Source: a virus
Lineage: Duplodnaviria > Heunggongvirae > Uroviricota > Caudoviricetes
Length of the DNA: 38,194 nt
Virus record (IMG/VR): IMGVR_UViG_2925914267_000004
Strand: one strand, 5' to 3'
The notes beneath the pieces were generated by a model that searched no databases, was not told the DNA's origin, and was given only the letters and a program-made list of their open reading frames with translations. The position numbers and the translations under genes are program-made. Shown piece after piece: positions 5,942 to 10,373 of the stretch (the first letter of the stretch is position 1; each line of letters begins with the position of its first letter).

Positions 5942-8557
5942 ATGACGGCAGAGTACATCAGGGACTGGCAACAACCACGCCACGCAGTGGGGCGTGAAGG
6001 AACGGGGATCCCCGCTCCTGAATCCGCGCTTTCCTCCTGGCTGGATGCCTACCGGGCAGAGAACGAGCGCCGCCAGGAAATGGCTGATGCGGCGTTCTCC
6101 GCCACGCCGCTGGACAACCTGATTAATAAAAGCCTGGACGCACAGGAAAAACAGGACAAAACCATCACACTGGCAGGAGACGCAAGAAAACAGGCACGCG
6201 GCGCGGTGGATGAAGCCATGGCCTCGCTGCGCCTGCTGCCGTCCTATCTGCGCGATCCGCTTATTCGCCACCTCTCCTTCCTGCGCAAAAAACAGGAAGC
6301 CGATCGCCGGAAAGGCAAAAAGAGCTGGCAGGCGGAACGCTATGCACGCGGAACCCTGCGCAAAATATTCGAACGTCTGGAGCGCACCGACAGCCGCTGG
6401 CTGACACCGGGTTATCGCGCCCTTGCCGGACGCGAACGCCTGGACGATTTGCTTTACCTGCCGCAGCTTAACAAGCACCAGATACAGACGCTGGCCACCA
6501 TGACGGCGGCAATGTTCAGCAGCACCTTTGAGACTCTCTGTGATGGTTTCGGTGCCAGAGATGGCGAGCTGACCATGGATGTAACGCTGAAGGCGTATCA
6601 GATGCTGGCCCGCATGGCGTTACACCTGCACGCCATGCCTCCACATTATGACGCACTGACAACAGACAAAGACCGGAGGAACGAACCGGACACGGAACTG
6701 CTGCCGGGCGCAATCCTTCGCCTGACCTGTGCGGACTGGTGGAAACGCAAACTGTGGCTGTTACGTTGTGAGTGGCGGGAAGAACAACTCCGCGCCGCCT
6801 GTCTGGTTTCCAGAAAAACATCACCCTATCTGAGCCAGGACGCGTTAAGCGAGTTTCGCGCACAGCGCGAGAAAACACGCGATTTCCTGAAAAGTTTCAT
6901 GCTGGAAAATGAAGACGGGTTCACGATTGATCTCGAGACGGTGTATTACGCGGGAGTAAGTAACCCGGTTCACCGTAAGGCAGAAATGATGGCCACCATG
7001 AAGGGACTGGAACTTCTGGCCGAAGCCCGTGGCGACAAAGCGGTGTTTCTGACTGTCACCTGCCCGTCAAAATACCACGCCACAACAGAGAACGGTCATC
7101 CGAATCCCAAATGGAACGGGGCCACCATGCGCGACTCCAGCGATTACCTGGTTAACACGTTTTTTGCGGCGGTCCGCAAAAAACTGAACCGCGACGGCCT
7201 GCGCTGGTATGGCATCCGCACGGTGGAGCCTCACCATGACGGCACCGTGCACTGGCATATGATGGTCTTTGCTCATCCGGAAGAAATCGACACCATTGTG
7301 TCCCACACCCGCGATATTGCCATTCAGGAAGACCGCCACGAACTGGGCAATGATATTACTCCGCGCTTTAAGGCGGAGTACGTCGACGGCTCAAAAGGCA
7401 CGCCAACCAGCTACATCGCCACCTACATCGGAAAGAACCTGGACAGCCACGCCGTGGATGGCATCGACCCGAAAACGGGCAAGCCACGCGTTGACCACGA
7501 AACCGGAAAATCAATGGCCGAGAGCGTGGAGCACGCCATCGGCTGGGCGCGCCTTCACCGGGTCCGCCAGTTCCAGTTCTTTGGCATCCCCTCCCGTCAG
7601 GTGTGGCGTGAACTGCGCCGCCTTGCCAGCCAGATGGCACGCAACCCGGAAGGCCCGCAACAGCTGAAGGATGACGCAATGGATGCGGTACTCGCTGCCG
7701 CTGATGCCGGGTGTTTTGCCACCTACATTGAAAAACAGGGTGGCGTGCTTGTTCCACGCAAAGACTACCTGATTCGCACCGCCTACGACCTCGCAGATGA
7801 GCTGAACGATTACGGCGAACAGAGCGTACAGATTTACGGGATCTGGTCGCCGCTCATCGGGGAGTCTTCCCGCGTGTGCACGCATCCGGATAACTGGAAG
7901 CTGGTAAGACGTAAACCGGAAGCGGAAGACAGCGCCCGCGAAAATGGTTTTGACCTTCAGGGCGGCCCTGCCGCCCCTTGGACTCGTGGCAATAACTGTC
8001 CCCGTGTACAGGAAACGGACAACAACGGGACAGAACAGCCGGAAGAACGGCCAGCACCGTGGCCGCAGCTTCCTGACGGCATTGAAGTGAATGAATGGAT
8101 GCGCTCACTGAAACGGCACGAACGCCGGGCGCTGATGCGTTCGCTGCGTGAAAAACCAGTAAATACCAGCAGCGGTGATACACCTGACCGGATGGCAGGG
8201 CATAAACAACCGCCAGACATACCAGTATCACCTGCCACTGAATGGAGAAAATCAGCCGGGGAACCGGGCATAAAACTGAGCGATGAACATATACAGCACC
8301 TGATGAAGACGGGAATGCTGCGTATTAATGGCCATGTACTGGAAGTCACTGACGGCAGACTGACACACCGTCGCGATCAGCGCACAGACAGGAAGGTGAG
8401 CCGCATCTGGGAACGCCTGAGCCGCAATCATGGCATCAGCGCAACTGAAATCAGGTACAACCCGCTCGCACACTACGTGGACATGCTCAGGAATATCGGC
8501 GTGGAGGCTTTACCCGCAGTCACAGAACACAGACATCAGGGAGATGAATCTCAGTGA
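5942..8557 (+). CDS. A: Rolling-circle replication initiator/endonuclease (P2 gpA-like)
   Basis: 871-aa ORF with the HUH-type motif VHWHMMVFAHPEE; the largest early gene, in the canonical A position. Confidence 0.9.
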   Translation: MTAEYIRDWQQPRHAVGREGTGIPAPESALSSWLDAYRAENERRQEMADAAFSATPLDNLINKSLDAQEKQDKTITLAGDARKQARGAVDEAMASLRLLPSYLRDPLIRHLSFLRKKQEADRRKGKKSWQAERYARGTLRKIFERLERTDSRWLTPGYRALAGRERLDDLLYLPQLNKHQIQTLATMTAAMFSSTFETLCDGFGARDGELTMDVTLKAYQMLARMALHLHAMPPHYDALTTDKDRRNEPDTELLPGAILRLTCADWWKRKLWLLRCEWREEQLRAACLVSRKTSPYLSQDALSEFRAQREKTRDFLKSFMLENEDGFTIDLETVYYAGVSNPVHRKAEMMATMKGLELLAEARGDKAVFLTVTCPSKYHATTENGHPNPKWNGATMRDSSDYLVNTFFAAVRKKLNRDGLRWYGIRTVEPHHDGTVHWHMMVFAHPEEIDTIVSHTRDIAIQEDRHELGNDITPRFKAEYVDGSKGTPTSYIATYIGKNLDSHAVDGIDPKTGKPRVDHETGKSMAESVEHAIGWARLHRVRQFQFFGIPSRQVWRELRRLASQMARNPEGPQQLKDDAMDAVLAAADAGCFATYIEKQGGVLVPRKDYLIRTAYDLADELNDYGEQSVQIYGIWSPLIGESSRVCTHPDNWKLVRRKPEAEDSARENGFDLQGGPAAPWTRGNNCPRVQETDNNGTEQPEERPAPWPQLPDGIEVNEWMRSLKRHERRALMRSLREKPVNTSSGDTPDRMAGHKQPPDIPVSPATEWRKSAGEPGIKLSDEHIQHLMKTGMLRINGHVLEVTDGRLTHRRDQRTDRKVSRIWERLSRNHGISATEIRYNPLAHYVDMLRNIGVEALPAVTEHRHQGDESQ

Positions 8558-9021
8558 TTAAATATTGTCGCCAGTGCGGCCGGGAGCTGCACTACAAGGA
8601 AAAATTTTATTTTTCAGATCACATCTGCTGCCGTTGCCGTGGACTGGCGTCGTTTGATGATGACGGTACTGAATCTGTCGGAAGGGAAAGAACACCTGTC
8701 GAACGCACCCTCTTCGAGCGTTACCCGGTATGGCAACTGATGATTGAGAAAGCCGAACGGCAGTGGAAAGCAACCCACCCGCAACCTCTGGCGGACGTCA
8801 TTACTGTAACCCGGTGCACAAAGGTCTCTGATGAACGCATCACCGAAATGCTGGCGCAGTATGACGACTTCAGGCCGGTTCAGATTGAAGAACGTGAGCT
8901 GATAGCCCTCCTTCAGGAAGTGCGCGAAGCACGACGCAGTGCCGCCTTACAGGCGGAAAAACAGACAGAAACGGGACTCACAAATCCCGTAAATGAGCAA
9001 AAAACGCGCCATAAAACATGA
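8554..9021 (+). CDS. Zinc-ribbon protein (CxxC-x16-CxxC), first gene of the A-Q cargo hotspot
   Basis: N-terminus CRQCGRELHYKEKFYFSDHICCRCRG. Starts at GTG overlapping the A stop, so the start is uncertain. Confidence 0.45.
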   Translation: MIKYCRQCGRELHYKEKFYFSDHICCRCRGLASFDDDGTESVGRERTPVERTLFERYPVWQLMIEKAERQWKATHPQPLADVITVTRCTKVSDERITEMLAQYDDFRPVQIEERELIALLQEVREARRSAALQAEKQTETGLTNPVNEQKTRHKT

Positions 9022-9063
9022 AGTGCGCACAAAACAGGCAAAAACGGGATTTCAGAATCCCGT
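8971..9063. promoter_or_regulatory. Two near-identical inverted repeats upstream of parM (candidate parC-like centromere/operator)
   Basis: ACGGGACTCACAAATCCCGT at 8971-8990 and ACGGGATTTCAGAATCCCGT at 9044-9063, both flanked by AAA; the second ends about 35 bp before the parM start. Confidence 0.4.
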
Positions 9064-10057: not shown

Positions 10058-10061
10058 ACCC

Positions 10062-10373
10062 ATGACGACATCAACCAGGCGGATAAGTTTCTATCTGAAG
10101 CCCTCCGCTGTCAAGAACGAAGGCGAAGCATGCGCATGGCTGGACAGCCTTACACCAGAAGCCCGCAAAAGCGGCCAACGCGTGGCTTTTCTGGCCGGGC
10201 TGGCACTTCTGAAAATGAATCCGGCAGAGGCTTACCGACTGGCTGCATGGGCTGATGATGAGGCGTTATCCGTGACACAAACCAGGACAGAACGCCCCGT
10301 GTCACAGCCAGTACCAACCGCACAGATAACCAGTCAGATGGCCGGAAATATCAGGGCGTTATTCCCCGAATAA
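10062..10373 (+). CDS. parR: ParR/StbB-like centromere-binding adaptor
   Basis: ATG at 10062 with GGAG 9 nt upstream, inside track ORF 9927..10373. RRISFYLKPS...LDSLTPEARKSGQRVAFLAGLALL...IRALFPE aligns by eye with R1 ParR (RRTIAFKLNP...LDSIPQGERSRLNRAALTAGLAL...LRSLFPKE). Confidence 0.7.
   Translation: MTTSTRRISFYLKPSAVKNEGEACAWLDSLTPEARKSGQRVAFLAGLALLKMNPAEAYRLAAWADDEALSVTQTRTERPVSQPVPTAQITSQMAGNIRALFPE

Follow-up and report, generated by a model that had tools for sequence, protein, structure and literature searches.

In the ParMRC (parA/stb) partition system of plasmid R1, a centromere precedes parM, which encodes an actin-like ATPase, and parR, which encodes its DNA-binding adaptor. The R1 centromere, parC, consists of two sets of five 11-bp iterons arranged around the promoter (PMC2241845); the ten iterons assemble a ring of ParR (PMC2241845; PMC3794156), and the C-terminal 17 residues of ParR form the peptide that binds ParM (PMC3794156). 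Related genes are found in temperate phages. The phage-plasmids P1, N15, SSU5 and D6 have plasmid-type partition genes, and the integrated Corynebacterium glutamicum prophage CGP3 codes for an actin-like ATPase, AlpC, and a DNA-binding adaptor, AlpA, with alpS sites upstream of the operon. AlpC and AlpA are induced early after excision and are required for efficient phage DNA replication (PMC4446434). A ParMR module is also present in P88-like phages: Rousset 2022 (PMC9122126) remarked on it, P88 was flagged among putative phage-plasmids in the phage-plasmid screen of Pfeifer 2021 (PMC7969092), and an episomal state was speculated on in both. Here we analyze the parMR cassette of IMG/VR record IMGVR_UViG_2925914267_000004, a Caudoviricetes sequence of 38,194 nucleotides (hereafter the window), in which parM (9098..10057) and parR (10062..10373) lie on the plus strand beyond a P2-type replication gene A. 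The module is already known, being a near-identical copy of an annotated and published feature of P88-like phages. Our comparisons place it in the backbone of these phages, and we favor a role in the segregation of extrachromosomal phage circles.

The nearest relatives are P88-like Peduoviridae (Xuanwuvirus; NC_026014 SF19_gp17/gp18; phiSM, Chuche, P884B11), which carry the same module in the same place after gene A, with both upstream palindromes, the same 76-nt gap before parM, and ParM and ParR that are 99.7% and 95% identical at the amino acid level. Their records bear the labels “plasmid segregation protein ParM” and “partition protein”, PHROGs likewise labels both proteins “partition protein”, and the PGAP labels in E. 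coli genomes are ParM and “plasmid partitioning/stability family protein”. The initial annotation of the window had considered a type II partition system unexpected in an integrating phage; with these labels in place and the module discussed in PMC9122126 and PMC7969092, that surprise is not warranted.

Profile searches of 9098..10057 against ParM/StbA and of 10062..10373 against ParR were both clearly positive. The 319-aa ParM, whose gene has a Shine-Dalgarno sequence (AAGGA) at 9085..9089, matches Pfam StbA_N (1.8e-82) and the ParM C-terminal domain (5e-69). It aligns over its full length with R1 ParM (PDB 1mwk; E 1.9e-93), to which it is approximately 52% identical, within the band of the best plasmid ParMs. 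The motifs DDGSTNIKL, MPESIPAG (corresponding to R1 Glu148), DLGGTTLD and GGGAE are kept, so the phosphate-1, phosphate-2 and adenosine motifs and the catalytic glutamate are all present. As judged from its sequence, ParM is a full-length, catalytically complete actin-like ATPase of the R1 type. The 103-aa adaptor ParR comprises an N-terminal DNA-binding domain (residues 1-67), a linker (68-88) and a C-terminal tail, ITSQMAGNIRALFPE. It matches Pfam PF10784 Plasmid_stab_B (6.8e-24; 83.9 bits against a cut-off of 25) and phrog_2515 (2.5e-57), and it can be assigned to the R1 ParR/StbB family; a sequence search of ParR against the PDB gave no match. The Pfam matches for both proteins and the alignment with R1 ParM bear out the earlier identification of a type II parMR cassette, and the three open reading frames (ORFs) of the region lie where they had been placed (8554..9021, 9098..10057 and 10062..10373).

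Constraint within ParR is uneven. The N-terminal domain and the C-terminal tail are constrained while the linker is free to evolve, and it is a short linker that makes this ParR smaller than the plasmid homologues with which we compared it (approximately 138-140 aa). The segment TRRISFYLKP is invariant. In the tail, N96 and F101 are invariant even with two plasmid ParRs included, and the motif NIxxLFP is common to phage ParR and plasmid ParRs, so that the end motif is related to that of the R1 system. Despite synonymous changes, the tail is free of non-synonymous change in three of the five close comparisons, and the remaining two show a single one each. ParR occurs in two allelic types (10062..10373 of the window versus 6965..7279 of locus L004 and 4568..4873 of locus L010), which differ in helix residues and in the tail (..TPEARKSGQRVAFLAGLALLKMNPAEAYRLAAW.. 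versus ..PASERSRAQRAAFLAGLALIKRTPALAYSLAEW..). Both alleles retain the TRRISFYLKP N-terminal strand unchanged, and both are paired with highly similar ParM (99% aa identity in L004; dN 0.0096 in L010) and near-identical palindromes.

Repeats upstream of parM, to which the earlier reading had alluded, exist as two 39-nt units (0.01 matches expected by chance), each containing a 20-bp palindrome. They fall at the conserved left end of the module, 8957..9097, a stretch that is A-rich on the plus strand (46% A) and that we regard as a candidate centromere/operator region resembling parC. Site 1 (8971..8990; ACGGGACTCACAAATCCCGT) and site 2 (9044..9063; ACGGGATTTCAGAATCCCGT) have GGG-N10-CCC cores at 8973..8988 and 9046..9061, and they represent two of the six motifs of this form in the entire 38-kb window. 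A perfect palindrome at 9068..9079, GATTAATTAATC, may be a weaker third site: it has the GATT-N4-AATC pattern of the inner site core, begins 22 bp past the start of the site 2 core, and is kept in E. coli-type loci and partly in Hafnia. The order of R1 is reproduced, with the sites (8971..9079) followed by parM and parR, all on the plus strand. In 12 of 12 close loci, site 1 stands at -125 from the parM ATG and the distance between the two sites is 73 bp, or seven turns. The spacing is 73 bp in Hafnia and 72 bp in a Plesiomonas relative, although their ParMs are only 63-64% identical to that of the window. Site position and the 72-73-bp spacing are thus kept across E. coli, E. albertii, Salmonella, Hafnia and Plesiomonas, while the middle 4 nt and the flanking sequence differ.

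Substitutions in the palindrome arms are not compensatory, as in strain TW10828, which has ACAGGA in both sites; because of this, protein half-sites fit better than hairpins. Together with the A-runs that follow the palindromes on the plus strand, the same changes speak against a hairpin or terminator. We propose that sites 1 and 2 are binding sites for ParR. Between 8700 and 10600, Tandem Repeats Finder detected no R1-like iteron array, the sole tandem being an unrelated 9-bp repeat 3′ of parR. “AAAC” words are weakly enriched (7 versus 3.1 expected, P ~0.014), which we do not use as evidence. What we find is therefore not an iteron centromere of the R1 type but, likely, a reduced, palindromic centromere of two or three sites. 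Where the R1 iterons flank a promoter, the palindromes are set 73 bp apart with no promoter of their own recognized, and the carrier is an integrating phage. The P2-like par modules of Serratia and Enterobacter (L017 and L018; ParM 54-59% identical, ParR 133-134 aa) differ in site layout, with two ~19-nt units (GGGAACGAAATAGAAAAAT-like) that are inverted and ~50-60 bp apart, in place of two self-palindromes, ~40-125 nt 5′ of parM.

The cassette had been taken for cargo of the A-Q hotspot, the interval in which P2 keeps old and tin (PMC9122126). Its distribution does not bear this out. Megablast found the module at 93-97% nucleotide identity in 14 phage records, including P88, two Xuanwuvirus, phiSM and Chuche. 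A gpA at least 60% identical to that of the window is encoded in exactly 14 phage records, the same 14 that have parMR (a match of sets inferred from identical organism and host tallies), whereas the next gpA relatives, at 45% identity or less in Klebsiella phages, come without ParM. Among 5426 complete E. coli genomes, megablast detected the module in 1306 (~24%). Most of the par module is present in 1277 genomes and most of a P88-like gene A in 1326, a concordance of genome counts of ~96%. Homology to relatives starts at a fixed border, 8957, whichever gpA 3′ end precedes it, and in most of them it extends as far as the parR stop codon (10373); in a minority, which has a different parR allele, nucleotide homology breaks off early in that gene, at ~10116. 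The order gpA-ParM-ParR-cargo-portal recurs in P2-like prophages of Plesiomonas, Hafnia, Serratia and Enterobacter with ParM 54-64% identical; in prophages of the P2-like kind, ParR variants with 55-72% identity are found at this position too. A contig collection with one genome per species contributed three loci only. A 226-kb contig labeled Vagococcus sp. WN89Y, a Firmicute (NZ_JBQPOM010000071.1), also has a P88-like parM region of the E. coli type at 98% identity, which probably reflects contamination or a mislabeled assembly.

The genes that do vary lie to the right of parMR. P88 has four small ORFs there, TW10828 has a DUF4760 gene, and the window, like many others, has a DUF3800 gene that is also found in phage Chuche and many E. 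coli prophages. Within this prophage, the part of variable A-Q hotspot cargo falls to the DUF3800 gene rather than to parMR. By these comparisons, parMR is a conserved backbone module fixed 3′ of the replication gene.

ParM is 95.6-99.7% identical to the ParMs of P88-like phages and 52.6% identical to the best plasmid ParM, with none between 60 and 95% among the matches listed. In a neighbor-joining tree, the phage-borne ParMs form two basal groups separate from the plasmid clades, compatible with one or two acquisitions. Two chromosomal relatives that we checked, at 49-51% identity, belong to an integrated plasmid and an integrative and conjugative element. parM is intact in all seven copies compared. 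Its ratio of non-synonymous to synonymous substitution rates (dN/dS) is 0.009-0.06 across six close relatives and 0.04 in two more divergent loci (L010, and a Hafnia locus at dS 0.6), compared with 0.15-0.36 for gene A in the identical genome pairs; the whole parR gene gives 0.06-0.38. Purifying selection is stronger on parM than on gene A.

We favor, at somewhat better than even odds, the interpretation that the cassette works as a genuine type II (ParMRC-class) segregation module, ancestral in the P88-like (Xuanwuvirus) replication region and acting on extrachromosomal phage circles. Three functions had been suggested for it (stabilizing an episomal form, hitch-hiking, or co-option for a task such as exclusion), and action on an episomal form appears to be the best reading of the three. 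P2-type rolling-circle replication produces monomeric circles. The ORF that precedes parM has the same orientation and ends 76 nt before it, and no plus-strand terminator or consensus promoter was found between the gene A region and parM, so parMR would be co-transcribed with the early/replication operon. Dimers of ParR would then bind the palindromes, and their tails would capture the ends of ParM filaments. The growing filaments would push apart circular phage genomes, which would be present only after infection or excision, and the module would have no role in the integrated, repressed prophage. The pay-off might be that phage circles reach both daughter cells ahead of integration or lysis. 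Alternatively, it might be the spatial organization of replication and packaging, as for AlpAC of CGP3.

CGP3 AlpC/AlpA/alpS offers the best functional analogy, since it likewise combines an actin-like ATPase, a DNA-binding adaptor and upstream sites in an integrated prophage. The two systems also differ. In CGP3 the adaptor gene comes first, the prophage is cryptic and its host Gram-positive, and AlpC lacks dynamic instability, whereas the window encodes a plain R1-type ParM.

Several points weigh against a segregation role. The missing promoter is the negative result of a simple sigma-70 consensus scan, which found none on the plus strand of 8400..10700 and which a weak or non-canonical promoter could escape; a promoter of its own could allow parMR to be expressed in lysogens. 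With two or three palindromes, the centromere is minimal next to the ten 11-bp iterons of R1. The fold of ParR is unconfirmed: an AlphaFold2 monomer built from a 17-sequence alignment has a pLDDT of 53.7, and its low-confidence secondary structure is compatible with a ribbon-helix-helix. Our literature search found no functional study of a P88-like ParMR, and the computations do not separate partition to daughter cells from positioning for replication.

A different possibility, raised in PMC9122126 and PMC7969092, is that the cassette lets P88-like phages lead a dual life, in which they can exist as plasmid prophages of low copy number instead of integrating. In favor of this, the cassette is complete and under selection, and one PLSDB record fits: NZ_CP148288.1 (1..34461), from E. 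coli Z1323PEC0009, is a 34,461-bp circle made up of a complete P88-like phage genome whose integrase and ogr ends are joined. This record, which also encodes Hok/Gef and a methyltransferase, represents either phage DNA excised in an induced culture and assembled as a circle, or an episome of rare occurrence; DNA excised by spontaneous induction could account for the single record. The other PLSDB matches are large replicons carrying an inserted phage, and in E. coli 1452 of the 1454 places occupied by the module are chromosomal, the other two being on plasmids. The copy in the window is itself integrated by serS and has an integrase. Its sole replication gene is a P2-type initiator A under a repressor, and from P2 biology a repressed genome should not replicate. 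The D6 protein, a StbA-type ParM, is 48% identical to that of the window, but phage-plasmids have plasmid replicons and a plasmid lifestyle, and an extrachromosomal prophage with a plasmid-type replicon is not what we observe. We conclude that a stable plasmid lifestyle of P88-like phages is unlikely.

Less likely still is that the module has been co-opted for a function in the lysogen, whether phage exclusion, incompatibility with plasmids of related centromeres, an effect on host chromosome segregation, or the use of ParR as a mere regulator. Its position in the A-Q interval, where P2 has old and tin (PMC9122126), is suggestive of such a role, and it adjoins a defense-candidate gene, the DUF3800 gene described above. 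PADLOC, however, returned no match for ParM, ParR or the 155-aa ORF upstream of them, which leaves the exclusion proposal unsupported. The module is invariant across the lineage, unlike hotspot cargo, and a pure regulator would not require the extreme constraint seen on the full ParM ATPase. No plasmid in PLSDB has this candidate centromere, inserted phage copies aside, and the consensus scan detected no promoter belonging to the module. Finally, parMR might be cargo that came from a plasmid not long ago and is now hitch-hiking or decaying, with no role in the phage. In favor of this idea, conjugative plasmids typically carry the family, and a ParM homologue is present in at least 5000 plasmid records. 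It is nevertheless highly improbable, being contradicted by the very strong purifying selection (dN/dS 0.01-0.06) and by the synteny kept across genera; the distance to the closest plasmid ParM, the seven intact copies and the concordance with the gene A lineage by genome counts also count against it.

The region immediately upstream of the module shows where the window departs from P88. gpA (5942..8557, plus strand; Pfam Phage_GPA 2.2e-130) has 871 aa, while that of P88 is longer, at 940 aa; in the window the C-terminal ~90 aa are replaced by a separate 155-aa ORF (8554..9021, plus strand) with CxxC...CCxC cysteines. The GTG at which this ORF starts and the stop codon of gpA overlap (GTGA), so that the ORF is translationally coupled to gpA. 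The ORF has no Pfam family, matches phrog_21788, where the function is listed as unknown, and is 83% identical to a 145-aa ORF of the divergent locus L010. Its last 18 aa are the sole stretch in common with the P88 gpA C-terminus, and its final ~21 codons overlie site 1. The 155-aa ORF is not part of the par module, and the pattern suggests that the replication gene region has two alternative 3′ architectures. Only two of the 5426 complete E. coli genomes have the 871-aa gpA and the 155-aa ORF in this arrangement when coverage of at least 80% of the 8400..10500 query is required.

On the other side of parMR, the DUF3800 gene (10605..11411, minus strand) encodes a 268-aa protein that matches the Pfam family (3.5e-10), the PADLOC candidate PDC-M04A (2.6e-35) and phrog_3732. 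The DUF3800 gene replaces the four small ORFs of P88. Between it and parR lies a non-coding spacer of 230 nt (10374..10604). Terminator-like hairpins on opposite strands mark its edges (10421..10440, minus; 10585..10604, plus), and the 9-bp tandem, TTTAAACGT x2 (2.1 copies), is at 10464..10482. Rfam has no match in this spacer, nor in a search of 8400..12100.

The rest of the window agrees with its reading as an integrated P2-like prophage with an integrase and a repressor, which its gene set and the flanking serS support. The P2-family backbone includes a tyrosine integrase (4..1008, minus strand), a helix-turn-helix repressor (1063..1404, minus strand), Cox, gpA, the portal (12022..13068, minus strand) and Ogr (36008..36268), and the right end of the window is host serS. 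The right attachment site is expected inside the ~630 nt between ogr and serS (36269..36901). As the window opens exactly on the stop codon of the integrase gene, the left junction falls outside it. A search with a P2 cos sequence as query gave no match.

Taken together, these results narrow the question posed by the module, which belongs to the backbone, is linked to gene A across genera, and likely has a minimal two-site centromere with seven-turn spacing. The puzzle is why a phage that integrates and is controlled by a repressor should maintain partition genes more tightly constrained than the gene for its own initiator of replication. More tentatively, and with rather less confidence than we attach to segregation as such, we suggest that ParMRC may serve as a phage “mini-spindle” tied to rolling-circle replication in a broad P2-like subfamily (Escherichia, Salmonella, Citrobacter, Hafnia, Plesiomonas, Serratia and Enterobacter), working through a reduced two-palindrome centromere and needed, in small integrating coliphages, for efficient lytic replication or packaging or for the establishment of lysogeny. 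If so, actin-like organization of viral DNA would be common in temperate phages of an ordinary kind, 35 kb in size, which about a quarter of E. coli strains carry, and cytoskeletal organization of DNA would not be confined to jumbo phages and plasmid prophages.

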